Numbered from the stretch's first letter, positions 2,578 through 20,811 are shown. The stretch is 38,599 nt of DNA from Planctomycetes bacterium UBA4800 (GCA_002402755.1 DHGK01000125.1:7822-46420), one strand, 5' to 3'. The notes: generated from the letters alone by a model not told the origin. Made by a program: numbers and translations.

Positions 2578-2603
2578 GGACGCCGAGGAGACGGAGATTC
2601 GCC

Positions 2604-5119: not shown

Positions 5120-5148
5120 TTGACCCGCAACTCCTGACGGCTTATAAT
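5120..5148 (+). promoter_or_regulatory. Sigma70-type consensus promoter (TTGACC-17 nt-TATAAT)
   Basis: TTGACC at 5120-5125, an exact 17-nt spacer, then TATAAT at 5143-5148. It sits in an AT-richer island in an otherwise GC-rich sequence, about 275 nt upstream of the pilM-like start. Confidence 0.65.
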
Positions 5149-5423
5149 CGAAACTCGTATTGACCGAGCCGCAGTACACTGTTCGAGAGAAGCAAGTAAC
5201 GGAGGAAAAGCCCAATGGGTTCGATCCCGATGCCGCGCGCTCGGCCGGGATGATCAGTTGTTGACTCCTTCCCCGATGCTTGCCCTCGCGGACGTATAGT
5301 GTACTGCGCCGGGGTGCGATTGTGCACCGAGCACTCTCGCCCGGCGAATGAGCGACGATGGCCCGCGCGCGCCGGGCGCGCGAAGGCGGAGAGCGAGACG
5401 AAGCCCAAGCAGTCGAGGTACTC

Positions 5424-7586
5424 ATGGCGGGTTTCAGCGCGGTCTGGAGCATCGATATCGGCAAGTTCGCCCTCAAGGCGGTCCACCTGCGCCGCGTCGG
5501 CATGCAGGTGGTTGTCCAGGGGACGGAGCGCATTGAGTACGACATCGGTCCGGAGGGCGTCGATTCCATCGGGGGCGCGAGGGAGGCCCTGCAGATCTTC
5601 ACCTCCCGCAATTCGATCCGCGACCCGTTCGTCGTCTGCCTGCCCGGGCAGGATACCCTCCCGCGGTTCATAAAGATCGTCGCCGACGACGAGAAGAAGC
5701 TCGAGGAACTGGTCAACTTCGAGGCGCGCCAGCAGATCCCGTTCGACATCCAGGAGGTCGTGTGGGACTGGCAGCTCGTGCCGCGCGACTACGCGGCCGG
5801 CCAGGAGCGGGAGATCGGCATCTTCGCCGCCCGGCGCGAGACCGTGGACGATCTCCTGCTGGAGCTCGGCGGCCACGGGATCCGCGGCCAGCAGGTGATC
5901 TGCGGCGACCTGGGGCTGCTCAACTTCGTCCTGTACGAGCTGAGGCCGAAGGCGCCGAGCGTGATCCTCGATGTCGGCGCCGACCACACGGCCCTGATCC
6001 TGGTCGACAACGGCGCGTTCTGGATCCGCGCGCTGCCGTTCTCGGGCAACCAGATCACCCGCGACCTGAGCCAGCGCTTCCGGCTCACGTTCGCGGAGGC
6101 CGAGCGCGTCAAGCGCCAGGCCGCCAAGAGCCCGCAGAAGGACAAGATCTTCGCGGCGCTGCAGAAGGTGCTCGGGGACTTCACGACCGAGGTGCAGCGC
6201 TCGGTCGCGTTCTACAGGCGCCAGATCGCCGAGACGAACTTCGAGACGGCGTACCTGCTCGGGCAGGGAAGCTTCACGCTGGGGCTCGGCCAGGTCGTCC
6301 AGGAGCGGCTCGGGTGGAAGGTGCAGCGCGTGGCGTCGCTGGCTCGGATGCGGCCCGCGGACGGCCTCGATGTGGCGGAGCTGAGGACGCAGCTCTCGTC
6401 GCTGGCTCCGGCGCTCGGCGCGGGGCTGCAGGGCCTGGGACTCGCCGCCACGAACGTCGACCTCATGCCGCACGAGCAGCAGGTGCAGCTCGCGTTCACG
6501 CGCAAGCGCAAGATGGTCTTCGTTGCCGGGGGCGTGCTCCTCGGCGCGCTCCTCGTGCTCGGCCGGGGGTACTCGAACAAGGCGGACGCGGCCAAGGAGT
6601 CGAACAGGGAGAGCGACAAGATCGTTGCGCAGCTCGACGGCGCCAGGAAACAGCTCGTCAAGACGAACGACATTCCGCTGCTGAAGGCCAAGATCGAGAC
6701 GCTCGCGCAGATCGGGCAGGAGCGCCAGTACTTCTCGGAGTCGCTGGCCGAGGTCAACAAGCTCTTCGCCGCCATCGAGAAGAGCGCGTACGATCGTCAG
6801 GCGCCGGGCAGGGTCACCACGCCCCTTGGGACCGAGAAGCCGCGCGCGCGCACGATCTTCATAGCGAAGCAGGAAGACGAGAACGACGCCCAGGCCGAAG
6901 CGCTGAACCGCATGGCGTCCGTGCACAAGCACATGGCATGGATGCTCTCGCTCGATGCGGCGCTGAAAGGCATCGAGACCGAGCGTACGGGCGCCGCCGC
7001 CGCGCGGGCGGCCGACGCCAGGGCGGCCGACAAGGCCAAGGCCGCCCCGCCGGCCCTGTCGTACGTCTTCACGCTCACGGGCGCCGTGCTCGCCCGCGAG
7101 ACCCCCGACGAGAGCCGCCGGTTCGTGGACTCCGTGGTGGTGGCGCCCTTGACGGCGGCCTTGCGCAAGAATCGGATTCTCGCCGGGCATGTCACGGCGG
7201 CGCCGAGGCTCCAGGTGCTCGACCAGACGGCGCTCGCCGAGCCCGCGTTCGATGATGACCGCCTGTTTGCGAAGAACTGGCTGCTCGTCGATCCGAAGCT
7301 GCTGCGCGATCAGGAGAAGGACAAGCGGGAGTCGCAGGCGGCCAGAGACGTCGGCCTGGCCGACGACGACAAGTACTACATGTTCAGCCTCAAGTGGACG
7401 GTCAGCGAGAAGGCGGCGGCGAAGGCCGCCGCCGCGGCGCCGGACGATGCCGCGGTCGCGCCGCCCGAGGAACCCGAAGAATCGCCCGCGGAGGGCCCGG
7501 CGGAGATTCCCGAGGAGGCCGCCGAGCCGGAGGCGCTCCTGCCGGAACCTCCCATGGAGGAGGCGGACGGCGCCGCCGAGGAGTAG
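5424..7586 (+). CDS. pilM: PilM-like actin-fold ATPase domain fused to a TM helix and PilN-like periplasmic domain (GspL-like topology), with acidic Pro/Glu/Ala tail
   Basis: N-terminus WSIDIGKFALKAV (phosphate-1), VILDVGADHTALILV (phosphate-2) and FEARQQIPF...VWDW are typical of PilM. Then comes the basic stretch plus TM helix RKRKMVFVAGGVLLGALLVLGRGY, a coiled-coil-like segment and a roughly 300-aa periplasmic part. The tail reads PPEEPEESPAEGPAEIPEEAAEPE. I prefer the ATG at 5424 over 5358. Confidence 0.8.
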   Translation: MAGFSAVWSIDIGKFALKAVHLRRVGMQVVVQGTERIEYDIGPEGVDSIGGAREALQIFTSRNSIRDPFVVCLPGQDTLPRFIKIVADDEKKLEELVNFEARQQIPFDIQEVVWDWQLVPRDYAAGQEREIGIFAARRETVDDLLLELGGHGIRGQQVICGDLGLLNFVLYELRPKAPSVILDVGADHTALILVDNGAFWIRALPFSGNQITRDLSQRFRLTFAEAERVKRQAAKSPQKDKIFAALQKVLGDFTTEVQRSVAFYRRQIAETNFETAYLLGQGSFTLGLGQVVQERLGWKVQRVASLARMRPADGLDVAELRTQLSSLAPALGAGLQGLGLAATNVDLMPHEQQVQLAFTRKRKMVFVAGGVLLGALLVLGRGYSNKADAAKESNRESDKIVAQLDGARKQLVKTNDIPLLKAKIETLAQIGQERQYFSESLAEVNKLFAAIEKSAYDRQAPGRVTTPLGTEKPRARTIFIAKQEDENDAQAEALNRMASVHKHMAWMLSLDAALKGIETERTGAAAARAADARAADKAKAAPPALSYVFTLTGAVLARETPDESRRFVDSVVVAPLTAALRKNRILAGHVTAAPRLQVLDQTALAEPAFDDDRLFAKNWLLVDPKLLRDQEKDKRESQAARDVGLADDDKYYMFSLKWTVSEKAAAKAAAAAPDDAAVAPPEEPEESPAEGPAEIPEEAAEPEALLPEPPMEEADGAAEE

Positions 7587-7592
7587 GTCACC

Positions 7593-8654
7593 ATGGAGAG
7601 CTTGAAGAAGAACGGATTCCTGGTCGGCGTGATCGCCATGGTCATCGGGATCGGGGTCTTCGCCTACTTCGTCAGTTGGAGCTGGGGCATCAGCAAGTAC
7701 CACAGCCTTCAGCGCGAGGTCTCGAAGAACGAGAGCTCGCTCGGCGCCTACGCCAAGATGAAGCCCGAGGATCTTCCCACCGATCGCAAGCTCGAGAACG
7801 ACACCGAGCTTCAGACGGCGCTGCGGGGGATTCTCGCCGACGTCGAGCGGTTCTACACCGAGCGCGTCGAGAAGCTTGTACGCCTGCAGCTCGTCAAGGG
7901 CGGCGAGACGTTCACGGCGAGGGATGACGCGGCGTTCGGCTCCGCGTTCAACACGGCGCTCGACGAGCTGAACAAGAAGTACGCCGAGGTCCGCGCCGAG
8001 TACGTGAAGCGCGTGTACCCGGCGCACGTGGCCGCGAATCCCGAGGCGGCGCAGGCGCAGCCGAGGATCTCGTTGAGCCCGACGATCTCGAGCAACGAGG
8101 CCGATCTGGTCGAGGCGGCGCAGATGTGCCGCGTGACGACCGCGCTCATCGCGGCGGCGACCGAGGCGCGGTGGGGCGGACTCACGTCCGTCGTCTTCGA
8201 GAAGAAGAAGACGACGAAAGCGGCGGAGGAGAGATCCAGGACCCCGCGCGCGGCGGAAACCGCGAAGAAGGGCCCCGCGATGACCGGCAAGGGGGGCAAA
8301 TCCGCGACAAAGGAGGAACCGCCCCCCGTCGTTCCCGAGTACAGCGCCCGGGACCTGTACGAGCGCGTGAAGCTGACGGCGGCGGGCGAGATCCGGTTCG
8401 AGGACATCGGCCCGTTCCTGCACGCCCTGGAGCTGCGCGCGCAGGATGCGGACGACCCCGTGTTCTTCGTCGTCGATGAGTGCGTGCTGACCAAGCAGAA
8501 GGATCGGCTGCTCAAGCCGCTCTACAAGGCGCAGGAGCCGTTCCAGAAGCTCGACGATGCGAAGCAGGCGCCGCCGGACTTCGAGGTCAAGCTGCCCACG
8601 GCCACGATGCGGCTCACCCTGAGCGTGTTGAAATACAGAGGATTCGCCCAGTAG
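7593..8654 (+). CDS. Bitopic membrane protein, positional analogue of PilO/GspM
   Basis: GAGGAG lies 9 nt upstream of the ATG. The N-terminal TM helix is FLVGVIAMVIGIGVFAYFVSW, followed by a helical and then a mixed periplasmic domain. There is an internal Lys/Thr/Ala-rich basic stretch (EKKKTTKAAEERSRTPRAAETAKKGPAMTGKGGKSATK). The functional call rests on position and topology only. Confidence 0.55.
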   Translation: MESLKKNGFLVGVIAMVIGIGVFAYFVSWSWGISKYHSLQREVSKNESSLGAYAKMKPEDLPTDRKLENDTELQTALRGILADVERFYTERVEKLVRLQLVKGGETFTARDDAAFGSAFNTALDELNKKYAEVRAEYVKRVYPAHVAANPEAAQAQPRISLSPTISSNEADLVEAAQMCRVTTALIAAATEARWGGLTSVVFEKKKTTKAAEERSRTPRAAETAKKGPAMTGKGGKSATKEEPPPVVPEYSARDLYERVKLTAAGEIRFEDIGPFLHALELRAQDADDPVFFVVDECVLTKQKDRLLKPLYKAQEPFQKLDDAKQAPPDFEVKLPTATMRLTLSVLKYRGFAQ

Positions 8655-8676
8655 CGTACGAGCGTGAGGAGCAAGC

Positions 8677-9912
8677 ATGGCGTCGGTTAAGGAGCAACTT
8701 TCAGCCCACTGCGACAAGCTGGCGTTCGGCATCGTGGCGGTCATGGTGATCGCCATGATCGCCGTCACCTGGACGGGCGAGGACAAGATCTCGATCAGCC
8801 AGGACCGGATCGTGCAACACCTCAAGGCCATCGACGATCACAAGAAGGATGCGGAGCTGCTGCCCCCCGCGGAACCCCTCGATCCGAGGACGGACATCGC
8901 ACGGCGTTCGTCCAGGGCCTCGATCCCGAAGGATGCGTGGACGCCCTTCGCCATGGATGTCCAGCCTGCGGTCGTGCGCATCTACAGCAGGGCGGCGACG
9001 TTCGACTCCGTGCACGGGGAGCCGGCGATCACGAGCGTCGCCATAACCCGCGACGCGGAGAAGAAGAAGCCCGTCATCACGGTGACCTTCCGGTTCGGCG
9101 AGCTGATCGAGGTCGGCGACGCGGCGGCGCGCGTTGAGCGCCGGGCCGCCGGCACGACCGCGTGGCGGGTCGTCGCGACGATTCCGCATGCGGAGGGCAC
9201 GGACGTCTACACGTGCGTCGACGCCGATGTGGAGGCGGGCGCGAGCTACATGTACAAGGTGACGTCCACGGCGACTCGGCTGAAGTCGAAGTGGCGGGCG
9301 GATTCGGGCCCCACGAAGACGTGCAGGGAGCCGGCGCCGCCCGAGGCCGACCTCGGCAGCTACGCGGTTCCCGCGGACCTGCGGATGATGTTCGTCCAGG
9401 GGAAGGTCACCGACCTGTCCGGCCCGGGAGAGGGGTACTTCAACGTCGAGGCGTACGAGTACGCGGCGGGCGCGTCCGTCGTCGAGCGCATGATCAAGCG
9501 CGATGAGGTGCTCGGCCTGAACCGGAAGCCGGATGCCGCGAAGGATCTCCTTCCGCGCACGAGGTACTACCTGAACGTCGTCAAGCAGGGGGAGAAGGGC
9601 CTCGTGGCGGTGCTGAAAGACATCGACACGCGCAGGGAGATCCAGCTTCCGCAGGGCTCCTGGGTGCCGGGGTCGATCGAGTGCCCCAAGGCCTGGGAGG
9701 CGGCGGCCCCGCCGCCGCCGGCGGCGGAGGATGAGACCATCGCGCCGGAGGACGCGCCTCCGGCGGAGGCGGCGCCCGCGCCGCCGGAGTCCGAACCGGC
9801 GGCGCCCGACGAGCCCCCGGCCGAGGAAGAAACCGATCCCAAGGACGAACCGTCGGAGGATGAAGCAGGTGGGGCCGCCGAGGGCGATGCCGGCGGCGGT
9901 CCGTTCAAGTAG
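8677..9912 (+). CDS. Bitopic membrane protein with FN3-like beta-sandwich and PilP/GspC-HR-like segment, acidic Pro/Ala/Glu tail
   Basis: GAGGAG lies 5 nt upstream of the ATG. TM helix LAFGIVAVMVIAMIAVTW. FN3-like signature ...VITVTFRF...WRVVATIP...YTCVDADVEAGASYMYKVTS. A later beta-rich segment reads YYLNVVKQGEKGLVAVLKDIDTRREIQL. The roughly 70-aa C-terminal tail reads AAEDETIAPEDAPPAEAAPAPPESEPAAPDEPPAEEETDPKDEPSEDE. The PilP-like role is inferred from position. Confidence 0.55.
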   Translation: MASVKEQLSAHCDKLAFGIVAVMVIAMIAVTWTGEDKISISQDRIVQHLKAIDDHKKDAELLPPAEPLDPRTDIARRSSRASIPKDAWTPFAMDVQPAVVRIYSRAATFDSVHGEPAITSVAITRDAEKKKPVITVTFRFGELIEVGDAAARVERRAAGTTAWRVVATIPHAEGTDVYTCVDADVEAGASYMYKVTSTATRLKSKWRADSGPTKTCREPAPPEADLGSYAVPADLRMMFVQGKVTDLSGPGEGYFNVEAYEYAAGASVVERMIKRDEVLGLNRKPDAAKDLLPRTRYYLNVVKQGEKGLVAVLKDIDTRREIQLPQGSWVPGSIECPKAWEAAAPPPPAAEDETIAPEDAPPAEAAPAPPESEPAAPDEPPAEEETDPKDEPSEDEAGGAAEGDAGGGPFK

Positions 9913-9921
9913 AAGGAGAGC

Positions 9922-12528
9922 GTGCCTGTGTTGCAGACGAGGATGACAGCAGCGTGGCATGGGCTTTTGGGGCGCGTGTCCCGGAGAGAGGTTGCGACGA
10001 TGAACGCACATGAGCATCTGGGCGGAGGGAGGTTCTCCCGGACCGGCGGGAGGACGATCGCGCTGGCAGTGGCGGCGCTGCTTGCCTGGGGCGCCGCGGC
10101 GCAGGCGGCGGCGGCCGAGCCTTCGGCGCCCGGCGGCGTTGCGGCGGCGGGCGCGGAGGCCGCGCTCGCGTTCGAGGTGCGCCAGGAAACCGCCCGCGCG
10201 CTCCTGAAGGAGGCTCGCGCGTTGAAGGATGAGCTGCGGTACGGCGAGGCCGAGAAGAAGCTCGAGCAGGCGCTCAGGTACGATCCGGCGCTGACCGATG
10301 CGCAGGTCGAGCTGGATTCCGTGCGGTTCCTCCTGGGACGGCTCGTCGGCGAGCGGGCGGAGACGATCGGCAAGATCCGGGACGATCAGATGCTGCTCGT
10401 CGAGCAGGCGCAGGCGCAGCTCAAGCGGCTCTTCGCCGATGGCGAGGCCTTGATGGCGCAGAAGAAGTACGAGCAGGCCCTCGAGAAGTTCTCCCGCGCC
10501 GTGGAGATCGACAGCTACTACCCCTGGAGCCTCAACATGCCCGAGCTGGTCAAGGCCGCGCGCGTGCAGATCGATACGTGCACGCGCCTGCTGGCGGACC
10601 AGAAGGCCGAGGAGCGGCGGCAGATCGAGGCCGAGCTCCGGGCCCGCGCCGAGGGCGACCGCGTGCGGGAGGTCAAGTACACCGAGACCCGCATCAGGCT
10701 GTACAAGACCCAGGCCGAGGAGGCGCTCCTGGAGAGCAGGTTCGACAAGGCCGAGCAGCATGCGCTGCAAGTGCTCGAGCTCGATCCCCGAAACGCCGAC
10801 GCGCAGTCGATCCGCGCGCGGGCGAGGTATCTCCGGCACCTGTTCGCCAGGGACCGAATCGAGCGCGAGACCCGCAGGAACTGGGATCTGGTGCTGCGCG
10901 GCATCCTGGAGACGACGGTGTCCTACCACCACATCTTCCAGTTCCCGCCGCGGAAGGTCTGGGAGAAGCTGGGCGAGGAGCGCATCTCGCTGGAGGAGCA
11001 GGTCGCGGCCGAGGAGCCCATCGCGAACCGCGACGTGCGCAGAATCCTGGAGACGACCAAGATCCAGCGGATCAGCTTCGAGGACCGGCCGCTCCACGAG
11101 GTGCTCGACTACCTGAGCCAGATCGCGGGCGTCAGCTTCGTGCCGAACAAGTCCGCGCGCGAGGCCATGGAGTCCGATGATCTCAAGGTCAACCTGCCGG
11201 AAGTCCAGAGCCTCATGCTCAAGAACGTGCTCGACATCGTGCTGGAGGCCGTCGGCGAGGGCTACGGCTACCAGATTCAGAACGGCGCCGTCATCATCGG
11301 GCCGAGGAGCTCGCTCGCCGAGAAGATGCACCTGGCCTTCTACTCGGTCGAGGACATCGCCAACCAGCATCCGGACTATCCGGCGCCGCCCATGTCCGTC
11401 AACCTGACGGGCGGGCAGGACCAGGGCGGGAGCGTCCTCCTGGATATCGCGGATACGGCGGACACGACCAAGACCGGACTGCCCGGCGAGCAGCTCCTGG
11501 AGCTGATTCGCAAGCGCATCTTCGTCGACGATGAAAAGAACGGCACGGTCGAGATGCAGACCGGCAAGCTCGTCGTCAGGACGTCGCTGGAGAACCATCG
11601 CAAGATCAACGAACTGCTGGAGAGCCTGCGCAAGCTGTCCGGCGTGCTCGTCGCGAGCGAGGCGCGCTTCATCGACATCCAGGACAACATGCTGGAGGAG
11701 ATCGGCGTGAACATCGGCGGGACGGTCGAGAGCGCCCTGGAGTATCCGATCCCCGACGTGAACGGCCTGGGCACCTCGGTGGCATCCGGGTACGTGTTCC
11801 TCGACCGGCGCATGCGGTACGAGTCGCGCGCCGCGAACATCTCCGACTACAGCGGCGTCATGGGCACCGAGATCACGCCGTTCAACATCACGGCCCAGGG
11901 CGGCATGGCGCTGCAGTGGAACGTGCTGGAGGACTACCAGCTCGAGGCCATCCTCACCATGGTCCAGAAGAAGCAGAAGACGCGCTCGCTGGATGCGCCG
12001 CGCGTGCTCGCGTTCGATTCGCAGACGGCGCACACCATGGTGATCGACCAGATCGCGTACATCAAGGACGTCGATGTCAATCAGACCGGCGTCAGCCCCG
12101 TGATCAACCCGCTGATCGGGTCGTTCCGCGTGGGGTCGCTGCTCGAGATCCGCCCCACGGTCACGCACGACCGCAAGTTCGTCATCCTGGAGGTCAAGCC
12201 GACGACGGCCAAGCACATCGATTCGAAGTACGCGGACCTGAGCCTCGCCCAGGGCTACACCATGGTGCAGGTCGAGCTGCCCGTGATCCTGCTCTCGCGG
12301 ATCCAGACGACGATCACGATTCCGGACGGCGGATCCGTGCTCGTCGGCGGCTTGAAGAAGGTGATCGAGCAGGACAAGAGCATCAGCGTCCCGATCATCC
12401 AGCGGATCCCGATCCTCAACATAATGTTCGGCCGGCAGGGCCAGTCGCGGCTCCGCAACAGCCTGTTCGTGATGATCAAGGCGGACATCGTGATCGTGAA
12501 GGAAGAGGAGAAGCTCAACTTCCCGTAG
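9922..12528 (+). CDS. Secretin (GspD/PilQ family) with N-terminal TPR-like region, paralogue 1
   Basis: C-terminal secretin core: ARFIDIQDNMLEEIGVNIGG ... ITIPDGGSVLVGGLKKVIEQDKSISVPIIQRIPILNIMFGRQ...LFVMIKADIV. N0-like domain: IQRISFEDRPLHEVLDYLSQIAGVSFV...GYGYQIQNGAVIIGP. TPR-like units: YGEAEKKLEQALRYDPALTDAQ, KKYEQALEKFSRAVEID and SRFDKAEQHALQVLELDPRNADAQ. Signal peptide: RTIALAVAALLAWGAAAQAAAAEP. The start is uncertain: GTG 9922, GTG 9928 or ATG 9991. Confidence 0.9.
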   Translation: MPVLQTRMTAAWHGLLGRVSRREVATMNAHEHLGGGRFSRTGGRTIALAVAALLAWGAAAQAAAAEPSAPGGVAAAGAEAALAFEVRQETARALLKEARALKDELRYGEAEKKLEQALRYDPALTDAQVELDSVRFLLGRLVGERAETIGKIRDDQMLLVEQAQAQLKRLFADGEALMAQKKYEQALEKFSRAVEIDSYYPWSLNMPELVKAARVQIDTCTRLLADQKAEERRQIEAELRARAEGDRVREVKYTETRIRLYKTQAEEALLESRFDKAEQHALQVLELDPRNADAQSIRARARYLRHLFARDRIERETRRNWDLVLRGILETTVSYHHIFQFPPRKVWEKLGEERISLEEQVAAEEPIANRDVRRILETTKIQRISFEDRPLHEVLDYLSQIAGVSFVPNKSAREAMESDDLKVNLPEVQSLMLKNVLDIVLEAVGEGYGYQIQNGAVIIGPRSSLAEKMHLAFYSVEDIANQHPDYPAPPMSVNLTGGQDQGGSVLLDIADTADTTKTGLPGEQLLELIRKRIFVDDEKNGTVEMQTGKLVVRTSLENHRKINELLESLRKLSGVLVASEARFIDIQDNMLEEIGVNIGGTVESALEYPIPDVNGLGTSVASGYVFLDRRMRYESRAANISDYSGVMGTEITPFNITAQGGMALQWNVLEDYQLEAILTMVQKKQKTRSLDAPRVLAFDSQTAHTMVIDQIAYIKDVDVNQTGVSPVINPLIGSFRVGSLLEIRPTVTHDRKFVILEVKPTTAKHIDSKYADLSLAQGYTMVQVELPVILLSRIQTTITIPDGGSVLVGGLKKVIEQDKSISVPIIQRIPILNIMFGRQGQSRLRNSLFVMIKADIVIVKEEEKLNFP

Positions 12529-12655
12529 ACGGGACTTCAGGAGAACGCAGGGAGGAACGAGGCGGCGCCGCGGCGCGCGGACGCGGATTCCCGCGGGGCG
12601 CGCCGGCCGCAGCGAGGAGCATATGAGCGGACGAAGCAATCCAAAGGAGACGGGC

Positions 12656-15328
12656 ATGAGAAGGATCACTTCCGTTCTTGCGATCGGAGCACTCGTCGCG
12701 GCGGCCGGTTGCATGCAGCCGCAGAGGACGCGGCCGGCGCAGGCCGACGCCCCGACGAGATCATCGCAGCTCCGGGAGATCGACGAGCTGGAGCGCGCGA
12801 TGGAGATCGACGCGGCCGTGACGACGTCCGACGCGGCCCCGGCGCCGGACGCGGCTCCCATGCCCGCGCCGGCCCCGGCCGGGACGCTCCGGGCGGCCGA
12901 GGCCGCGGTCGCCGGGGCGGCCGATGAGAAGAAGAGCCTCAACCGCCAGATTGCAGCCGACTACATCGCGCGCGGCGACAAGAAGCGCGAGGGCGCGGAT
13001 TACCAGGCCGCGGCGGCGCTGTACGAGCAGGCGGTGAAGGCGGACGCGGAGAACGTCGAGGCGCGCGAGAAGCTGCGTCTGTCCGAGATGATGCTCGGCA
13101 AGCGCGACGCGTCCGTCGCGGCGGTCATGCAGGAGTGGAGCGCCGAGATGAACGTCGAGCGCGAGGCGCGCCTGAACGAGGTCGACCGCCTCATCGAGGA
13201 ATCCCTGAAGGCCATGACGGAGTACCGGCTCCAGGAAGCCCAGTTGATGCTCCAGCAGGCGAAAGCCCGGCTGGCGCTGTTCGAGGCCTCGACCGAGACG
13301 CAGGGCCGCCAGGCGCGCCTGGAGAACCTCCTGGTCCAGGCGAACGATCTCCTGCGGCGGCGCGCGGTCGAGACCCGCGAGCAGCAGGAAGCGGCGATCC
13401 GCACGGCGATCGAGAAGGACGCGGCGTTCCGCGACGAGCAGAAGAAGGAGCGGATCAGGGTGCTGGTCGAGGCCGCGAGCGAGGCCTACCGCCTGCAGGA
13501 TTACGCGCAGTGCGTGCAGATCTGCGAGGTCGTCCTGAAGGAGAATCCGCGCCAGATCCAGGCGCGCGCGCTCCTGAAGAAGTCCAGGGACATGGAGAAG
13601 TCCCTCTGGGAGCGGGAGCACGACGCGGCGCTCAAGGAGCACTCGAAGCTGACGTGGGAAGGGCTCGAGGATGCGGCCAAGCCGCCGTCGACCGCCTTCG
13701 AGTTCCCCGGCGAGGAGCGCTGGAACATCGTCAGGAAGCGCGAGGCCGATGTGCAGATCGGCATGATCGAGGAGTCCGAGGAGGTCAAGGAGATCAAGCG
13801 GCGCCTGGCGACCGCGCGGATCACGATCGACTTCGACAACAAGCCGCTCGCGGACGCCATCGACTACATCAAGAAGATCACCCAGATCAACATTCACATC
13901 GACAAGGACGTGGACCCCGAGGAGACGAAGGTCAAGCTCAACCTGACGCAGGTGAAGCTCCAGGATGCCCTCGAACTGATGATGCTGAACACGGGGCTGG
14001 CGTACACCTTCAGGAACAACGTCCTGACGATCACGGTGCCCGAGAAGGCCCGGGGCCTCGTTATCCTGAAGATCTACACGGTGACGGACATCCTGAGCAG
14101 GATCAGGGATTTCCCCGGCCCGAAGCTGGAGATCACGACTCCCGACGAGGAGACCGAATCCGGCGGCGGCCCCGGCGGCACCGGCTTCCAGTTCGAAGAG
14201 GGCGAGGAATCCAAGACGCTCGAGCCCGAGCAGCTCCAGAAGCTGGTGCAGGAGAGCACGGGCGGCCAGGACGTCTGGGACGGGGAGATCAACCGCATCC
14301 AGGTGCACCGCGGACAACTGCTCGTCGAGGCGAGCCCCGAACTGCACGCGAGGGTGGCCCGCGTGCTCGATGAGCTGCGCCAGGACGCCGACCTCTTCGT
14401 GGTCGTCAAGGCGCGGTTCGTCGACATCACGAACGATTTTCTGGAGGACATCGGCGTCGACTACCGCAATCTCAGCCAGCGCAACACGCCGTGGCGCAGC
14501 ACGTACAGCGGGCGCATCCACGACAGCCGGACGGGCGGGCAGGATCCGGGCTTCACCGACGCGCTGGGCGTGGAGAATCCGGAGCTGGTCGGGCGCATGC
14601 AGAACACCCTCGACGGCTACGCGAGCCTGATCCGCGGCGACCGCGTCTTCGGCGGCCCCGGCGGGCTGAGCGGCCTGAGCCTGCAGTTCATGATGGTCGA
14701 TCCGTACCAGATCAACGCGATCGTGCGCGCGGTCCAGGAGGAGAGCGGCGTCAAGTCGGTGATCGCGCCCGAGGTCACGGCGCACAACGGCCAGCGCGTG
14801 TACGTGTCGGTGATCACGCAGCGCTCGTACATCGCGGACTACGAGCTGGTGTCCGGCGGCACGACGTACACCCTGACGGAAGTCGCGGACCCGATCGTGC
14901 GCGTCAACGAGGAAGGCGTGGTGCTCGATGTGCGGCCGAGCGTGAGCGCGGACCGCAAGTACATCACGATCGATGTCCAGCCGACGCTCGCGACCCTCAT
15001 CGGCGGCGTGATCTCCACCGTGCTCATCAACCTCGGCACGGTCATGGCCGCGGCCATGCAGGTCCCGATCGGGCTGCCGAAGATGTCGATCCAGCGGACG
15101 TGGACGTCGGTCACCGTGCCGGACGGCGGCACGGTGCTCCTGGGCGGCTTCCGGAGCCTGGAGGAGCGCAAGTACCATTCCTCGATCCCGATCCTCGGGG
15201 ATATCCCGGTGCTGAACCTGCTCGTGAGCCGCAAGGCCGAGCTGCGGGAGAAACGCAGCCTGATCATCCTGCTGACGGCGAAGCTGGTCGACCTCCGGCA
15301 GGAGGAAATCGAGCGCTTCGGCCAGTAG
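12656..15328 (+). CDS. Secretin (GspD/PilQ family) with lipoprotein signal and N-terminal TPR-like region, paralogue 2 (putative liposecretin)
   Basis: AAGGAG lies 6 nt upstream of the ATG at 12656. MRRITSVLAIGALVAAAGC is a signal peptide with a lipobox. TPR-like units: GADYQAAAALYEQAVKADAENVEAREKL and YRLQDYAQCVQICEVVLKENPRQIQARALL. N0-like domain: ITIDFDNKPLADAIDYIKKITQINIHID...GLAYTFRNNVLTITVP. Secretin core: ARFVDITNDFLEDIGVDYRN ... VTVPDGGTVLLGGFRSLEERKYHSSIPILGDIPVLNLLVSRK...LIILLTAKLV. It is collinear with paralogue 1. Confidence 0.9.
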   Translation: MRRITSVLAIGALVAAAGCMQPQRTRPAQADAPTRSSQLREIDELERAMEIDAAVTTSDAAPAPDAAPMPAPAPAGTLRAAEAAVAGAADEKKSLNRQIAADYIARGDKKREGADYQAAAALYEQAVKADAENVEAREKLRLSEMMLGKRDASVAAVMQEWSAEMNVEREARLNEVDRLIEESLKAMTEYRLQEAQLMLQQAKARLALFEASTETQGRQARLENLLVQANDLLRRRAVETREQQEAAIRTAIEKDAAFRDEQKKERIRVLVEAASEAYRLQDYAQCVQICEVVLKENPRQIQARALLKKSRDMEKSLWEREHDAALKEHSKLTWEGLEDAAKPPSTAFEFPGEERWNIVRKREADVQIGMIEESEEVKEIKRRLATARITIDFDNKPLADAIDYIKKITQINIHIDKDVDPEETKVKLNLTQVKLQDALELMMLNTGLAYTFRNNVLTITVPEKARGLVILKIYTVTDILSRIRDFPGPKLEITTPDEETESGGGPGGTGFQFEEGEESKTLEPEQLQKLVQESTGGQDVWDGEINRIQVHRGQLLVEASPELHARVARVLDELRQDADLFVVVKARFVDITNDFLEDIGVDYRNLSQRNTPWRSTYSGRIHDSRTGGQDPGFTDALGVENPELVGRMQNTLDGYASLIRGDRVFGGPGGLSGLSLQFMMVDPYQINAIVRAVQEESGVKSVIAPEVTAHNGQRVYVSVITQRSYIADYELVSGGTTYTLTEVADPIVRVNEEGVVLDVRPSVSADRKYITIDVQPTLATLIGGVISTVLINLGTVMAAAMQVPIGLPKMSIQRTWTSVTVPDGGTVLLGGFRSLEERKYHSSIPILGDIPVLNLLVSRKAELREKRSLIILLTAKLVDLRQEEIERFGQ

Positions 15329-15352
15329 CGCGCCGCGCGCGCGGCCGATATC

Positions 15353-15391
15353 ATCCGGGGAGGCGTTCGCGCCTCCCCGGATGTTTTTGTT
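15353..15391 (+). terminator. Rho-independent terminator (13-bp GC-rich stem, UUCG loop, T-tract)
   Basis: atccggggaggcg (15353-15365), ttcg loop, cgcctccccggat (15370-15382), then gtttttgtt. The 13 base pairs are perfect. It begins 25 nt after the second secretin stop. Confidence 0.9.
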
Positions 15392-15430
15392 GCCGGCGCG
15401 GGTGCGGCCGCCGGCGCCGCCGATGAGGAG

Positions 15431-16231
15431 ATGCCCGTGTCCACGCTGCGCGCGATCTTCTTCGACCTGGACGATACGCTGTACTCGACGAGCGAGTTCG
15501 CCGAGCGCGCGCGGCGGAACAGCGTCGAGGCCATGATCAAGATGGGGCTGCGCGCCGACCCCGCCGTGCTCGCCGCGGAGCTCGGCGAGGTCGTCGAGGA
15601 GTTCTCGTCGAACTACGAGCGCCACTTCGACCAACTGCTCCGGCGGCTGCCCCGGCGCCTGTACCGCGGCGTGAATCCCGCGATCATCGTCGCGGCCGGC
15701 GTGGCGGCGTACCACGACACGAAGTTCCGGTATCTGTGCCCGTACGAGGACGCGTACGAGGCGCTGCGGGAGCTGGCGCGGACCGAGCTCGTCCGCGGCG
15801 TGATCACCGCGGGCCTCGCCGTCAAGCAGGCCGAGAAGCTCGTGCGCCTGCGCATCGCGCCGTTGCTGTCGCCCGGGGCCATCTTCATCTCCGACCAGCT
15901 CGGCGTCAACAAGCCGAACGTGAAGATGTACCAGCGCGCGTGCTCGGACCTGAATCTCAAGCCGGCGGAGACGATGTACGTCGGCGACAACGCGGCGATG
16001 GATATCGATCCCCCCAAGCGCATCGGAATGCAGACGGTCCATGTCGTCCGCGGCGGCAAGCACGCCGGCGAGGGCGCGGAGTGCGCGCCGGACTGGACGG
16101 TCGGCAACTTCTGGGAGCTTCTCGACGTGCTCCGCGATCACCTGGGGGTGGCGATGCCCCCGCGTACGGCCGAGGGCGGCCCCGAGCAGCATGCACACCA
16201 GGCTTCTGGTACTGACCGCGGCGTGGCCTAG
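15431..16231 (+). CDS. HAD-superfamily hydrolase (subfamily IA-like phosphatase)
   Basis: Motif I IFFDLDDTLY. Motif IV-like YVGDNAAMDIDPPKRIGMQTV. The GTG at 15437 (GAGGAG 6 nt upstream) is an alternative start. The 3' end overlaps the next gene by 41 nt. Confidence 0.85.
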   Translation: MPVSTLRAIFFDLDDTLYSTSEFAERARRNSVEAMIKMGLRADPAVLAAELGEVVEEFSSNYERHFDQLLRRLPRRLYRGVNPAIIVAAGVAAYHDTKFRYLCPYEDAYEALRELARTELVRGVITAGLAVKQAEKLVRLRIAPLLSPGAIFISDQLGVNKPNVKMYQRACSDLNLKPAETMYVGDNAAMDIDPPKRIGMQTVHVVRGGKHAGEGAECAPDWTVGNFWELLDVLRDHLGVAMPPRTAEGGPEQHAHQASGTDRGVA

Positions 16232-17312
16232 CCGGCGGTTCCCGCGCACGGGCGGGTTCATCCGCATTCTCACGGATGGAATGCGCGAGGAGGGCTTCGA
16301 TGTCCGCGTCGTTGCGCCCGGCGCGCGCGGGGGGGCCGAGAGCGCCGCCGGCTTTCCCGTGCCGGCCGTGCGGCTCAAGACCGCCGCGCCGTCCCGCGTG
16401 CTGCAGTTCCTGTACATCGTGTCCGCCGCGAGCGCGTGCGTGCGCGAGGGATGCCGCCGGCGGCCCGATGCGCTGCTCGTCCACTGGGTGCTGCCGGCCG
16501 GACCGGCGGCGCTGTGGGCGGCGCGGAAGCTCGGGATTCCGCTGTTCGCCTGGGCCCACGGGTCGGACCTGGAAGTGTACGCCGCCCGCGGCGGCATCAT
16601 GCGTGCGGCGGCGCGGGCCGTCGTGCGCGGCGCCTCGGGCGTGTTCGCGGCGTCGGGGAGCCTGTGTCGAAGAGCGGCTGCGCTCGGCGCCGCCGCCGTC
16701 GCGCACCTTCCCGTGGGGGTTGCGTCCGTGTTCAAGGACGCGCCGCCGGCGCCGCGCCCCGCCGGTCCCTTCACGATCCTGTTCTGCGGCGACTTCATCC
16801 CCGAGAAGGGCGTGCGCGAGCTTGTCGCCGCGCGGAGGCTGCTGGGGCCCGGCCGGCCCGCGCGGTGGGTGTGCGCCGGCGCCGGGCCGCTCGGACCGGC
16901 GCTCGCGCGCGCCGGCTTCGATGTCCGCGGGGCCCTGGACGCGGCCGATGTGGCGGCACTGATGGATGCAAGCCGCGTGCTCGTCCTGCCGAGCAGGTCC
17001 GAAGGAACCCCGCTCGTCATCCAGGAGGCGCTCTGCCGGGGGCTTCCGGTGATCGCATCTTCGGTGGGAGGCGTCGGGGAGGTGGTGCGGCCGGGCCGCG
17101 AGGGGCTGCTGCTCGCGCCGCCCGTGCGCGGGCGGACGCTGGCGCGGGCGATCGCGGAGCTGTACGATACGCCCTCGCTGTGCGACACGCTGGCCGCGTA
17201 CGCGCGCGCACGAGGCGCCGAGGTGCGGACGGCGCGGGAGACCGCGGCGTCGTTTCGGCGCACGCTCGCGGCCTGGGAATGCGCCCGAGGAGGCCCGCCA
17301 TCGACGCCGTGA
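16191..17312 (+). CDS. Glycosyltransferase, GT4 family (GT-B fold)
   Basis: N-terminus TRLLVLTAAWPSRRFPRTGGFIRIL...EGFDVRVV. C-terminal EX7E motif in LPSRSEGTPLVIQEALCRGLPVIASSVGGVGEVV. The upstream 50 codons of track ORF 16041.. are Arg/Ser-rich read-through of the HAD gene region. Confidence 0.85.
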   Translation: MHTRLLVLTAAWPSRRFPRTGGFIRILTDGMREEGFDVRVVAPGARGGAESAAGFPVPAVRLKTAAPSRVLQFLYIVSAASACVREGCRRRPDALLVHWVLPAGPAALWAARKLGIPLFAWAHGSDLEVYAARGGIMRAAARAVVRGASGVFAASGSLCRRAAALGAAAVAHLPVGVASVFKDAPPAPRPAGPFTILFCGDFIPEKGVRELVAARRLLGPGRPARWVCAGAGPLGPALARAGFDVRGALDAADVAALMDASRVLVLPSRSEGTPLVIQEALCRGLPVIASSVGGVGEVVRPGREGLLLAPPVRGRTLARAIAELYDTPSLCDTLAAYARARGAEVRTARETAASFRRTLAAWECARGGPPSTP

Positions 17313-17980
17313 CGACGTACGAACGCTACTGGAAGGCCCGTGAGGGCGCCGTTCGGGAGCGCCTCCGCCGGCGAAGCCTTCAGCGGGCGCGCGCCGCGCA
17401 TGCGATGCTGGCGATCCGGAGCGGCACGTTGCTCGACGTGGGATGCGGCCCGGGCTTCGCGGCCGAGTTCTTCGCGGCGCGGGGATTCGCCGTGACGGGC
17501 GTCGAGCCCGCGCCGTCGGCGGCGCAGGACGCGCGCACGCGCGGGATCACGGTCGTGGAAGGCGATCTGTCGGCGGGCGCGCTGCCGCCGGGGCCGTTCG
17601 ATGTCGTGCTCGCGCTGGAGGTGCTCGAGCATCTCGCCGACCCGATCGCGGCCCTCGGCGCGCTCATGCGCGCGGCGCGGCCGGACGGCGAGGTCGTGGT
17701 GTCGCTGCCGAACGAGTGGCACATCCTGCGGCGGCTCGCGTTGCTCCTCGGCGCGGAGCCCCTAGGGGGCGCCGAGGATCCCCACATCCGGCACTTCGGC
17801 CTGCGCGCGGCGCGGCGGCTCTTCGATGCGGCCGGCGTGCCCGTGCGCGTCGAGCGTGCGGTCGCGATCATCCCGCCCTGGTGCGGCGCCGCCGATGCCG
17901 CGGGCCGGGTGCTCGCGCGGGCCGCGCCGCGGCTTTTCGGCCTGAGCTTCCTTTTCCTGGCGCGCAAGGAGGGGCGGTGA
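17279..17980 (+). CDS. Class I SAM-dependent methyltransferase
   Basis: Motif I LLDVGCGPGFAAEFFAARGFAVTGVE. Post-I/II motifs FDVVLALEVLEHLADP and PDGEVVVSLPN. The ATG at 17279 overlaps the GT4 3' end. Only the last 233 aa of track ORF 16436..17980 look like real protein. Confidence 0.8.
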   Translation: MRPRRPAIDAVTTYERYWKAREGAVRERLRRRSLQRARAAHAMLAIRSGTLLDVGCGPGFAAEFFAARGFAVTGVEPAPSAAQDARTRGITVVEGDLSAGALPPGPFDVVLALEVLEHLADPIAALGALMRAARPDGEVVVSLPNEWHILRRLALLLGAEPLGGAEDPHIRHFGLRAARRLFDAAGVPVRVERAVAIIPPWCGAADAAGRVLARAAPRLFGLSFLFLARKEGR

Positions 17981-20811
17981 GAATACCGGCGCGCCTCGCG
18001 ATCCTGAGCATCCCGGCGGCGGCGCTGCTCCTGTACTGGGGCATGCTCGCCGTGAAGGACGGCGCGCGCCCGGAGTTCGTCTTCGACGACGTGAAGCTGA
18101 TCAAGGAGAACCCGTGGGCGGGCTCGCTCGCCGACAACGCGGCGGCGTTCGACATCTTCTCGGACAGGTGGGAGCAGGAGAGCGTTCGCATCAACTACCG
18201 TCCGCTGCGATTTCTCTCGTACGCGATCGACTGGCGCCTGACGCGGTGGTTGTGGCCGGACGAGCAGGAGCTGCGCACCACGGTGTTTCACGCCCACAAC
18301 ATGCTCTTGCACGCACTGAACGGAGTGCTACTGCTGCTCGTGCTCGCACGCCTCCTGCCCGGCAGGGGCGGGCTGCCGCTCTTCCTCGCCCTCGTGTGGG
18401 TCGTCCATCCCCTTGCGACCGAGTCGGTGGCATACGTGTCGGGGCGCCGCGACGTGCTGTTCGCGGCGTGCTACCTCGGCGCGCTCGCGGTGTACCTGCA
18501 CGGCGCGCGCGAGTGGTGGCGGATTGCGCTGGCGGGGCTCCTGTACGTGCTCGGCATGCTGACCAAGGAGATGGCGGCGACGCTGCCCGCAGCCATGGCG
18601 CTGAGCGATATGTTTCTGCGCAGGCGGATCGATCGCCGCGCGGCGGCGTGCTATGCGCTTCTCGGCGCGGCGGGCGCCGCGTACATCGCCTTCAAGCTCG
18701 GCGTGAAGAACCCGGGCGGCGGCGCGCCGTACTGGGGCGGCACCCTGTGCACGGCGCTTCTCACGGAGGCGCGCGCGGTCTTCAGGTACATCTACCTGGC
18801 CCTCGTTCCGCTGGAGCTTTCTGCGGACTGGTCCTACGCCGCGATCAGGCCCTCCTCGGGCCTGATCGATCCCTGGACGACGCTGCCCGCCGCGGCCGTC
18901 GCGTCGGCGTGCGCGGCGGCCGCCGCATGGACGTTCATCCGGCGGCGGTCGTGCTGGGCGTTCGGCGCGTGTCTCTTTCTCGTGATGCTGTCGCCGGTCA
19001 TGCAGATCGTGCCGCACCCCGAGCGCTTCGCCGAGCGGTACATGTACCTTCCGCTCGCGGCCCTTCTGCTCGCGGGCGCCATGGCGTGCAACGCGCTCCG
19101 CCCGCTCGTGACCGGGAAGATCCTGGCCGCGGCCGTGCTCATCGTGTTTGCCGCGAGGACGTACGTGAGGACCGACGACTGGAGGTCCTCGATGTCGCTG
19201 TGGAAGAGCGCCGTCGCGGTCAATCCGGAGTGTGCCCGCGCGCGCCTCGGCCTTGCGTTCGCGCTGTCCGGCGCGAAGCGCTGGCAGGACGCCGGCACGC
19301 ATCTGGACCGCGCGATCGAGATTCTCGCGACGCTGCCGTCGCCGAGCCCGCTCGAGCGCGGGCACGCGCTCCAGGCGCGGGCGTTCCGCGCGCAGGCCGA
19401 CGCGGCGTACGGGGATGCGCTCAAGGCCGAGCTGGCGGGCCTCGCGCCCGACGACCCTCGCCGCGGCACCCTCAGGGACGGCGCGCGCATGCGCTACTCC
19501 CGGGCCGCCGCGGACTACGAGCATCTGCTCGGGAGCGTCGATGTCGATGGCCGCCCGTTCGCCGCGGGCCCGGGCGCGATCGCCACCTACGGGCTCCTGG
19601 GGGCGGTGTGCTTCAGGCTTGAGCGGTACGACCGGGCCGATGCCGCGTACCGGCACGTGCTCGCGCTGAGCGAGGGGTCGGGTTCGGCCGCGCGGCCCGC
19701 GCGGGAGGCGCGCTTCTGGCTGGGCATGATCGCGCTCGCGGGCGGGAAGACCACGCTCGGGACGCGGCAGATCCTCAGGGCGGCGCAGGACGCCGGAGAT
19801 GTGCGCGAGGCCTTTGCGTACAAGGCCCAGCTTGCGGAGATCCTCCGGAAGGTGGGGAGGTGGAGTGCGGCCCTCGACATCTACGATGAGATCAGGCCGC
19901 ACGCCGAGGGACAGGAGCGCCTGGCGGTGGATTACGCCCGGGCGGAGATCTTCGACCGGCTGGGGAAGCGCAGCGATGCGATCATGCTGCTGCGAGAGCT
20001 GCTCGAGCGGCAACCCGACCTGGTTCCCGCCGAGATCAGTCTCATCGACCTCGAGCTCAAGGATGGGCGCTGGCGGGAGGTCAGAACGCGCCTGGCCGCG
20101 CTCAAGGCGCGCCACGGAAGGCTGCCCGTGCTCGCGGCGTACGAGAAGCAGATCGCGCTGCAGGAAGAGCTGGCGGCCAAGGCGCCGTCGCAGGTACGGC
20201 GGGCGCTCGATGCCGAGACGCTGCTCGCCGCCGGCCGCGAGAACATGGACGCGGGCGCGTGGGGATTCGCAGTCGAGGCCTTCAAGGATGCGTTCGTCGC
20301 CGCGGAGGCCGCGGGGAGCAAGGAAACGGCGCTTCGCGCGCTCAGGTACCTCGCGCGGAGCCTGCAGCGCGCCGGAAGGCCGATCGAAGCGCTTCCGGTG
20401 CTGCAGAAGGCGCTGGCGGCGTCGCCCGACGACCCGCGGTTCCTGAAGGATCTGGGCGACCTGCATGCCGGCAGCCTCGAGAACATGCAGGAGGCGCTCG
20501 CGGCCTACACGCGCCTCGCGGCGGCGGCTGGCGATGGCGCCACGCGCGTCGAGGCCAACCTGGCGATGGGCGGCCTGCTGGAGAAGAACGGCGCCGGCGA
20601 GGAGGCCGCGATGTGCTACGACCGTGCCGCGCAGGCCGGCAGCGTGCCGCCCGCGATTCACAGGCGGCGGGGCGAGCTGTGGGAGGCTGCCGGCGACGTT
20701 GCCAGGGCCCGCGCCGCCTACGATGCCTACCTGGAATGCGAGGAGGATCCGGAGACGCGCCGTGCGGTCGAGGAACGGCGGCGGGCGCTGCCGAGCGGGG
20801 AGACGCCGTGA
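17977..20811 (+). CDS. Polytopic GT-C-like membrane protein (PMT/TMTC-like, loop-1 FDD motif) with C-terminal TPR array
   Basis: The GTG at 17977 overlaps the methyltransferase stop (GTGA), with AAGGAGG upstream. The N-terminal half has many hydrophobic helices (LAILSIPAAALLLYWGML, LLHALNGVLLLLVLARLL, LPLFLALVWVVHPL, IALAGLLYVLGML ...). EFVFDDVKLIKENP follows the first helix. The C-terminal half is about 450 aa of TPR-like repeats (e.g. ARLGLAFALSGAKRWQDAGTHLDRAIE and EANLAMGGLLEKNGAGEEAAMCYDRAAQ). Confidence 0.7.
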   Translation: MRIPARLAILSIPAAALLLYWGMLAVKDGARPEFVFDDVKLIKENPWAGSLADNAAAFDIFSDRWEQESVRINYRPLRFLSYAIDWRLTRWLWPDEQELRTTVFHAHNMLLHALNGVLLLLVLARLLPGRGGLPLFLALVWVVHPLATESVAYVSGRRDVLFAACYLGALAVYLHGAREWWRIALAGLLYVLGMLTKEMAATLPAAMALSDMFLRRRIDRRAAACYALLGAAGAAYIAFKLGVKNPGGGAPYWGGTLCTALLTEARAVFRYIYLALVPLELSADWSYAAIRPSSGLIDPWTTLPAAAVASACAAAAAWTFIRRRSCWAFGACLFLVMLSPVMQIVPHPERFAERYMYLPLAALLLAGAMACNALRPLVTGKILAAAVLIVFAARTYVRTDDWRSSMSLWKSAVAVNPECARARLGLAFALSGAKRWQDAGTHLDRAIEILATLPSPSPLERGHALQARAFRAQADAAYGDALKAELAGLAPDDPRRGTLRDGARMRYSRAAADYEHLLGSVDVDGRPFAAGPGAIATYGLLGAVCFRLERYDRADAAYRHVLALSEGSGSAARPAREARFWLGMIALAGGKTTLGTRQILRAAQDAGDVREAFAYKAQLAEILRKVGRWSAALDIYDEIRPHAEGQERLAVDYARAEIFDRLGKRSDAIMLLRELLERQPDLVPAEISLIDLELKDGRWREVRTRLAALKARHGRLPVLAAYEKQIALQEELAAKAPSQVRRALDAETLLAAGRENMDAGAWGFAVEAFKDAFVAAEAAGSKETALRALRYLARSLQRAGRPIEALPVLQKALAASPDDPRFLKDLGDLHAGSLENMQEALAAYTRLAAAAGDGATRVEANLAMGGLLEKNGAGEEAAMCYDRAAQAGSVPPAIHRRRGELWEAAGDVARARAAYDAYLECEEDPETRRAVEERRRALPSGETP

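Follow-up and report, generated by a model that had tools for sequence, protein, structure and literature searches.

In Akkermansia muciniphila, the secretin PilQ (Amuc_1098) is the most abundant protein of the outer membrane, its location having been determined by immunogold; its N-terminal domain contains three tetratricopeptide repeats (TPRs) "resembling the pilotin proteins", its C-terminal domain is a secretin domain, and Verrucomicrobia and Lentisphaera share this TPR-secretin architecture (Ottman et al. 2016, PMC4960237). With Akkermansia PilQ, the fusion of TPRs to a secretin has thus been known in the Planctomycetes-Verrucomicrobia-Chlamydiae (PVC) superphylum since 2016. Lipid anchors are tied to secretins in two further kinds of system. 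The liposecretins HxcQ of P. aeruginosa and BfpB and R64 PilN of type IVb pili carry a lipoprotein signal, followed by a long linker, on the secretin itself, and PilF, PilW and Tgl of type IVa pili, like TadD of Tad pili, combine a lipid anchor with TPR-type hairpins and are tied to a PilQ- or RcpA-type secretin. HxcQ-type liposecretins are single-copy in their own systems, and the route by which secretins reach and insert into the outer membrane, by way of pilotins or by self-piloting, is still being worked out. Here we analyse two adjacent secretin genes, S1 and S2, in a 38,599-nucleotide stretch of DNA from Planctomycetes bacterium UBA4800 (GCA_002402755.1, DHGK01000125.1:7822-46420; G+C about 70%), the whole of which we call the window. 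The pair is a PVC-type TPR-secretin that is lipidated and stably duplicated, and it does not constitute a new kind of system. The stable pairing of two such secretins appears to be undescribed; our search of open-access papers and bioRxiv found no report of paired secretins in one locus or of lipidated TPR-secretins in the Planctomycetota.

On balance, and with moderate confidence, we explain the locus as follows. A five-gene operon would supply the envelope scaffold for a type IV pilus-like system of the PVC type, consisting of a PilM/PilN-like fusion, two single-pass membrane proteins, and the PilQ-like secretins S1 and S2. Both secretins share one layout: signal, variable linker, elongated helical arm of about 290 amino acids (aa) with TPR-like hairpins, N0 domain, linker, N1 domain, and secretin barrel. 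They are an ancient pair in which S2 would be self-piloting, and they would form separate rings with divided roles.

S1 (10000..12528, 842 aa) and S2 (12656..15328, 890 aa, a predicted liposecretin) lie on the + strand. Each contains the Pfam Secretin domain (PF00263) above the gathering cut-off of 27.5 bits (81.7 bits, E 5.9e-23 for S1; 76.3 bits, E 2.8e-21 for S2), with nearly the whole model covered (aa 681-857 of the 868-aa open reading frame (ORF) of S1; model positions 1-169 of 169 in S2). BLASTP aligns the two proteins over 688 positions at 26% identity (E 1e-57), with corresponding motifs such as ARFIDIQDNMLEEIGV and ARFVDITNDFLEDIGV or IPDGGSVLVGG and VPDGGTVLLGG, and once orthologs are added the alignment is collinear across the whole N-terminal module. 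A sequence-only reading of this DNA had proposed two adjacent, collinear secretin paralogues, and this is borne out. Of the lengths that it gave, about 868 and 890 aa, the second stands, but the first has to be shortened: the mechanical ORF of S1 opens at GTG 9922, and the most likely start is ATG 10000, because orthologs with 76-90% identity are annotated with lengths of 833-844 aa and open with MNAHE or MNAQA. S2 probably starts at ATG 12656, 6 nt downstream of the sequence AAGGAG, within a mechanical ORF of 12623-15328.

The domains between arm and barrel follow the secretin plan in both proteins. The N0 (STN) domain of S2 (13811..14065, +, approximate limits) matches Pfam STN (PF07660; E 7.9e-8, 32.4 bits versus a cut-off of 28.4), and the N0-like domain of S1 (11071..11319, +, approximate limits) aligns to it, is covered by the PilQ model from position 6, and matches the N. 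meningitidis PilQ chains 4av2 and 9sh1. An N1-like domain and the secretin core follow at 11548..12492 (+) in S1 and at 14306..15292 (+) in S2, with the Pfam Secretin match at 11962-12492 and 14729-15292, respectively; here the MshL model TIGR02519 is covered at positions 3-290 of 290 by S1 and 6-289 of 290 by S2. The N1-like region is a putative assignment drawn from coverage of the MshL and PilQ profiles. With a core domain, N0, and a ring-building N1-like domain, both proteins belong to the secretin superfamily. Their nearest curated models, those of MshL, PilQ, and the Amuc_1098 family, are all type IV pilus secretins: TIGR02519 matches S2 at E 6.3e-30, below its cut-off; PilQ (TIGR02515, cut-off 284.35 bits) matches S1 at 70.3 bits (E 1.5e-19, model positions 6-426 of 428) and S2 at 94.1 bits (E 9.2e-27); and the Amuc_1098 family (NF042912, cut-off 750) matches the C-terminal part only, at 63.5 bits in S1 (E 1e-17) and 87.3 bits in S2 (E 6.7e-25). 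The GspD model TIGR02517 gives 64.2 and 58.1 bits versus a cut-off of 351.35. Neither protein can thus be assigned to type IVa PilQ, GspD, or the Amuc_1098 family by these cut-offs. The GspD-type Secretin_N domain (PF03958) is not matched in either protein at E <= 0.1, nor did the Pfam scan find in them the AMIN domain that marks the PilQ-type N-terminus. Sequence matches in the PDB are to PilQ, GspD, the phage pIV export protein, and RcpA.

To place the pair among its relatives, we scanned one genome per GTDB species and obtained 71 loci, nearly all from metagenome-assembled genomes of uncultured Planctomycetota, which were mapped by tblastn and gene calls on the fetched contigs. In a neighbour-joining tree of 104 sequences (300 bootstraps with capped distances), the orthologs of S1 fall into one clade and those of S2 into another, the branching within one mirrors that within the other, and all 300 bootstraps recover both clades. 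Comparison of S1 with S2 within a locus gives 25-32% identity in 30 loci. Across 30 Planctomycetota loci the distance matrices of S1 and S2 are correlated with a Mantel r of 0.988, a value reached by 0 of 2000 permutations, and with a slope of 1.08. Ratios of nonsynonymous to synonymous substitution rates (dN/dS) against close relatives are 0.19-0.25 for S1 and 0.19-0.33 for S2, similar to those of the flanking genes (0.21-0.22 for the neighbouring haloacid dehalogenase (HAD) gene). S1 and S2 thus go back to one ancient duplication in a lineage of uncultured Planctomycetota, and have since been inherited jointly under purifying selection. The idea of an ancient, co-inherited duplication, which the sequence-only reading had put up for testing, holds, and neither gene is a recent, decaying duplicate. 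S1 and S2 join in a single clade in only 67 of 300 bootstraps, so that the tree does not fix where the single-secretin lineages attach relative to the pair. One locus (L066) has a secretin pair of its own (197-2173 and 10001-11848), 48% identical and flanking ExbD genes, which groups with the single-copy lineages; this points to another, more recent duplication within a cluster of this type.

The signals at the two N-termini differ in the window, as had been noted. S1 begins with a signal of the type cleaved by signal peptidase I (SPase-I; 10000..10107, +; …LLAWGAAAQA/AAAEP), as read from its sequence; it ends in TIALAVAALLAWGAAAQA before AAAEP and contains no Cys. S2 begins with the lipoprotein signal MRRITSVLAIGALVAAAG-C (12656..12712, +, the codon of Cys19 at 12710-12712), and its N-terminus, MRRITSVLAIGALVAAAGC followed by MQ, satisfies a lipobox rule like that of PROSITE PS51257. 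All 47 S2 orthologs whose 5' end is intact retain the lipobox Cys; 42 pass the strict regular expression, and the other five have a Pro near the box or no Lys or Arg in the n-region. The Cys is likewise kept in 12 of 13 single-copy planctomycetal relatives. By manual curation of the regular-expression output, about 9 of 29 S1 orthologs (L001, L002, L003, L030, L041-L043, L054, L059) have a canonical lipobox; in the others the Cys is gone or position -1 is Val or Leu, and an SPase-I site comes next. The contrast between a lipidated and a non-lipidated paralogue is therefore a feature of the window but, among the relatives, a lineage-specific one. A secretin with a helical arm and a predicted lipid anchor is the ancestral state, because S2 and most single-copy relatives keep the Cys; S2 has retained this state, and S1 has lost the lipobox at least about three times. 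In the window (LLAWGA, 10085-10090) and in L006, S1 has a Trp where the 78%-identical ortholog of L003 has a Cys (LLACGV, L003:10001-10110), which looks like a recent loss of lipidation in the lineage of the window. A single-base change, TGC or TGT to TGG, would explain this substitution. Between the anchor and the helical module of S2 lies a variable linker rich in Ala, Pro, Asp, and Glu (12713..12940, +), poorly conserved, of varying length among orthologs, and presumably disordered. In some relatives, for example L050 and L051, the linker has grown into long Ala/Glu/Pro repeats.

The helical modules occupy 10174..11049 (+) in S1 and 12941..13780 (+) in S2. AlphaFold2 (AF2) models of S1 aa 59-382 and S2 aa 96-385, with mean predicted local distance difference test (pLDDT) values of 84.3 and 88.0, are both all-helical with the same order of elements: about three TPR-like hairpins parted by single helices of about 38, about 65 (up to 67), and about 40 residues. 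In the S2 module the helices span residues 2-17, 21-34, 39-51, 55-93, 97-111, 118-184, 188-201, and 206-246. The two modules align without gaps over 290 columns at 18% identity. In S1, Pfam TPR_11 (E 3.1e-8) and TPR_2 (E 5.8e-8) score above their cut-offs; S2 has only weak TPR-like Pfam matches, and phmmer against the PDB links it to consensus TPR (CTPR) proteins and MamA. Despite the high pLDDT, the predicted template modelling score (pTM) of the arms is 0.43-0.45. According to the models, then, the arm is elongated and not a compact TPR superhelix, and the designation "TPR-like" needs this qualifier: the earlier description of N-terminal TPR-like modules holds for an all-helical fold with TPR-like hairpins, but not for a TPR superhelix.

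Whether the arm is related to known pilotins was judged by fold and sequence. Foldseek searches of the PDB with both arms return weak, generic TPR matches (E >= 4e-4, template modelling (TM) scores of about 0.15-0.2), led by designed consensus TPRs, P58IPK, Hop, and MamA; PilF stands at rank 8 for S1 and rank 14 for S2 (E 3.5e-3 to 5.8e-3, TM 0.15-0.26), and BamD at rank 45 for S2. Searching the PDB by sequence with the arms likewise returns generic TPR proteins. The PilF/PilW/Tgl model TIGR02521 matches a single repeat of S1 at 18.8 bits versus a cut-off of 154, and does not match S2. We therefore reject the arm as a specific homologue of PilF/PilW/Tgl or BamD, given that both kinds of search show only generic TPR similarity, and with it the suggested kinship to PilF-type pilotins. 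The notion of a pilotin-secretin fusion peculiar to the second paralogue likewise fails, as the same arm is present in S1, in single-copy planctomycetal secretins, and in verrucomicrobial PilQ of the Amuc_1098 type.

A profile built from the two modules of the window and searched against 1.84 billion representative proteins recovers 652 proteins at E <= 1e-3 and 158 clusters (representatives at 50% identity) at E <= 1e-10. Most full-length matches in a single stretch are in proteins of about 830-960 aa in which the module begins at residue 60-170 or so. Ten matches were read individually. One (P0029) is a complete, S1-like secretin of 848 aa with an SPase-I type signal; the other nine are short, most continuing into N0 and ending there and three ending within the module, and a lipobox can be seen in seven of the nine. 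These short proteins resemble gene calls that were cut short. The idea that the arm descends from a stand-alone protein was considered and set aside, as there is no complete stand-alone protein among the ten. The members of the family that we have seen are unnamed or labelled "hypothetical protein".

The segment of the window from about 5120 to 15383 looks like one five-gene operon, because a promoter-like site lies upstream, a terminator-like hairpin follows S2, and no site of either kind occurs on the + strand between S1 and S2. The promoter-like site (5120..5148, +), recognized by its consensus match, consists of TTGACC and TATAAT separated by 17 nt and agrees with 11 of 12 consensus positions; two promoter-like sites were found versus 0.6 expected from shuffled sequence. 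The hairpin (15352..15383, +), directly 3' of S2, resembles an intrinsic terminator, with a 14-bp stem that has 11 G-C pairs, followed by a run of T. The first gene (5358..7586, +) encodes a PilM-like, actin-fold protein (Pfam PilM_2, E 3.9e-25) with the hydrophobic, transmembrane segment MVFVAGGVLLGALLVLG C-terminal to the PilM domain and a periplasmic domain of about 330 aa, that is, a PilM/PilN-like fusion similar to Amuc_1101; its NCBIfam matches, to Amuc_1101_fam (E 4e-59, 201 bits versus a cut-off of 650) and to TIGR01175 pilM (E 2.4e-34), are both below the cut-offs. Two proteins, each with one N-terminal hydrophobic helix and no family match, follow. The first, of 353 aa (7593..8654, +; dN/dS 0.33-0.44), has a PilN/PilO-like topology and a gene position that is conserved in relatives; although it occupies the position of Amuc_1100, it matches neither the Amuc_1100 nor the Amuc_1102 model, both present in the library scanned, at E <= 0.1. 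The second, of 411 aa (8677..9912, +; dN/dS 0.34-0.37), has a Pro/Glu/Ala-rich tail and a 34%-identical ortholog in L001. Among the scanned ORFs of the window there is no match to the PilO, PilP, PilB, PilC, or pilin families and no separate PilF-like lipoprotein.

The tandem arrangement that was noted in the window is not the usual one; most relatives have five or six genes between S1 and S2 (L001:4240-9978, L002:3754-9977, and most of L014-L062). In the usual order, S1 is followed by a helical protein (about 940 aa), a TPR protein (about 350 aa), ExbB, two or three ExbD, and then S2, after which come an HAD hydrolase, a glycosyltransferase, in many cases a methyltransferase, and a membrane/TPR protein. 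Both of the inserted helical/TPR proteins of L001 carry SPase-I signals. S1 and S2 are directly adjacent only in the subclade of the window (L006/L011, L007/L012) and in L043 and L064. The insert is present in the outgroups and in both sister lineages, L001 and L002, so that the adjacency is most simply a derived loss or relocation; tblastn finds no homologue of ExbB, ExbD, or the 938-aa and 352-aa TPR proteins in the window. More distant Planctomycetota (L067-L079) have a single secretin, and in eight of these loci (L069-L071, L073, L075, L076, L078, L079) ExbB and ExbD lie about 6 kb downstream of it; in L069 a 1332-aa ORF and a TPR protein of 439 aa span the interval. The Verrucomicrobia-type loci L008 and L009 contain Amuc_1102, PilM, Amuc_1100, and an unnamed gene, followed by a single secretin (1013-1022 aa) that has faint TPR matches and an SPase-I signal. 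What is most unusual about the family is its link to ExbB/ExbD, seen in most relatives, and we found nothing about secretin clusters linked to ExbB/ExbD in open-access papers or bioRxiv.

In the explanation that we favour, S2 would be acylated, sorted to the outer membrane by the localization of lipoproteins (Lol) pathway, and assembled without a separate pilotin, its lipid-tethered arm serving as a built-in pilotin or as an element that braces the ring. Each paralogue would most likely form its own homo-oligomeric ring, because every characterised secretin does so, and the two rings would share out the work of one system; S1 comes after the PilM-like genes in most relatives, and S2 after the module of periplasmic TPR proteins and ExbB/ExbD. 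The insertion or stability of S1 may now depend on another factor, possibly S2, since S1 has tolerated the loss of the anchor and S2 never has. This confinement of lipobox loss to S1 is the only, and circumstantial, support for cooperation between S1 and S2.

Several points weigh against this explanation. Nothing in the data separates assembly of each protein into its own ring from assembly into mixed rings. Both proteins fall far short of the cut-offs of the curated PilQ, MshL, GspD, and Amuc_1098 models. The label "pilus-like" derives from the homology of PilM and the secretins, and no pilin, PilB/PilC/PilT-type ATPase, or platform gene was found among the scanned ORFs of the window or beside the cluster in the relatives. 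The acylation, Lol sorting, and self-piloting of S2 are predictions from its signal. The losses of the S1 lipobox are clustered phylogenetically, in about three or more events, so that a Fisher P of 9e-12 overstates the evidence. The arm is not a compact TPR domain (Foldseek TM about 0.2), the AF2 alignments behind its models are shallow, at 14 sequences, because word-indexed protein searches gave few homologues (13, 6, and 12 matches), and a pilotin-like role would be assigned to it by analogy.

An alternative that we regard as unlikely, though worth weighing, is that S1 and S2 co-assemble, in a mixed ring or with lipidated S2 piloting or docking non-lipidated S1 in trans, as an obligate two-component channel. 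The pair shares an operon with no internal terminator and is strictly co-inherited at nearly equal rates, as the Mantel correlation and slope show; moreover, repeated loss of the lipobox in S1, against none in S2 and one exception in the single-copy relatives, is the relaxation of constraint expected if S2 supplied the targeting. However, characterised secretins are homo-oligomers, and our literature search found neither a heteromeric secretin ring nor paired secretins in one locus. The same-locus identity of 25-32% includes the barrel region, and because about nine S1 orthologs keep a lipobox of their own, dependence on S2 cannot be general. Nor is S2 always preceded by S1: in L065 (1-12388), a basal lineage of the S2 clade, the unit of helical/TPR protein, ExbB, two ExbD, and S2 is present, but its immediate upstream neighbours encode a SpoIIE-type phosphatase and a TPR protein instead of PilM or S1. 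The cluster can therefore be split into its two halves.

Doubtful, too, is the proposal that the arm is a periplasm-spanning spacer or docking scaffold and not the equivalent of a pilotin. Its binding partners would be associated with peptidoglycan or lie in the inner membrane, such as the PilM/N-like complex or, in relatives, the TPR/ExbBD module; the lipid would merely anchor its far end, and S1 and S2 would be two independent channels for different cargo. The long single helices, the elongated shape with its low pTM, and the lack of a compact TPR cup suit such a role, as do the non-lipidated versions in S1 and the Verrucomicrobia, the different gene sets that S1 and S2 flank in most relatives, and the finding that PilF and BamD are no closer to the arm than any other TPR protein. 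It fits less well that residue +2 after the Cys is never Asp in the orthologs read, as expected for sorting to the outer membrane under a rule that is that of E. coli and may not be that of the Planctomycetota, and that the known outer-membrane TPR lipoproteins PilF, Tgl, and TadD pilot secretins, as reported in PMC10499894.

A more far-reaching proposal, which we consider clearly improbable, makes S1 and S2 the outer-membrane parts of a single envelope machine, with S2 docking or piloting S1 in a mixed or double ring. Two periplasmic TPR proteins would couple this machine, in most of the clade, to a motor of ExbB and two or three ExbD that runs on the proton-motive force; the secretin would hence be driven or gated by ExbBD rather than, or besides, by a PilB-type ATPase, and could underlie the fibre and crateriform uptake structures of Planctomycetes. 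Finally, the view that either gene is a redundant, recent, or decaying copy lacking a separate function, for which only the adjacency of the pair speaks, has a negligible chance and is rejected, as both ORFs are intact in about 30 species-level genomes and the separate clades, the divergence within loci, and the dN/dS values like those of the neighbours contradict it.

Compared with the described systems, the window is closest to the cluster Amuc_1098-1102 of A. muciniphila, in which a PVC secretin with a TPR-bearing N-terminus likewise lies downstream of a PilM-like gene (Amuc_1101) and two small genes. The gene order of the window is that of L008 and L009, and both a TPR-type N-terminus and an Amuc_1101-like PilM are found in it. 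It differs in having two secretins, in contrast to the one in the clusters of L008 and L009, and in the lipobox of S2: none of the four verrucomicrobial-type homologues read has a lipobox, and three of them (P0008, P0010, P0012) have a clear SPase-I signal. S2 shares the lipobox of HxcQ-type liposecretins, which S1 of the window, having no Cys, does not, and the S1/S2 cluster contains no separate pilotin gene. S2 is, however, no closer in sequence to these liposecretins than to other secretins (PilN family TIGR02520, E 0.0024), and HxcQ, BfpB, and R64 PilN are not known to have a helical, TPR-like arm (about 290 aa) that separates the anchor from N0. PilF, PilW, Tgl, and TadD are separate, compact TPR superhelix proteins, in contrast to the fused, elongated module of S1 and S2, which very long helices interrupt. 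RhcC1 and RhcC2 correspond to the N- and C-terminal portions of a single secretin and are not full-length paralogues. In the rhizobial type III system these two secretin-related genes occur together with a TPR helper, Y4yS, as described in PMC4311626.

Outside the operon, the remaining identified genes of the window are mostly housekeeping genes (L13, S9, HisG, HisD, TrxB-like, PlsY, HAD, UDG, and MiaB-like), beside several ORFs with no family match. A block that follows S2 (15431-20811) encodes an HAD hydrolase, a GT4 glycosyltransferase (about 16191-17273), a methyltransferase (about 17318-17956), and a large protein (about 18010-20754) with a hydrophobic N-terminal half and C-terminal TPRs. 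It is kept in nearly all relatives whose contigs reach that far, and may reflect a functional link, such as glycosylation, or merely a conserved gene order. Low-complexity stretches rich in Ala, Pro, and Glu recur in the operon proteins, at 7400-7586 (the tail of the PilM/N-like protein), 9700-9912 (the tail of the 411-aa protein), and 12830-12940 (the S2 linker). The long ORFs at 273-2981 (+) and at 5142-8831, 8701-12942, and 12761-17722 (-) are mechanical ORFs of high-G+C DNA and not real genes. Only the last 120 aa or so of the 902-aa ORF at 273-2981 match a family (RidA/L-PSP), and relatives have separate small genes in this region, one cytidylyltransferase-like and one for RidA.

For the window itself, the practical gain is a corrected annotation. 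Beyond it, lipidated secretins with a helical arm are a large family in metagenomes, with 158 clusters, and the pair is a natural experiment in which the anchor has always been kept in one secretin and repeatedly lost in the other, posing the question of whether one secretin can support another. Co-assembly of S1 and S2, or a functional coupling to ExbBD, would be of high interest if true, and the linkage to ExbB/ExbD could bear on how large molecules or fibres are moved across the unusual outer membrane of planctomycetes.

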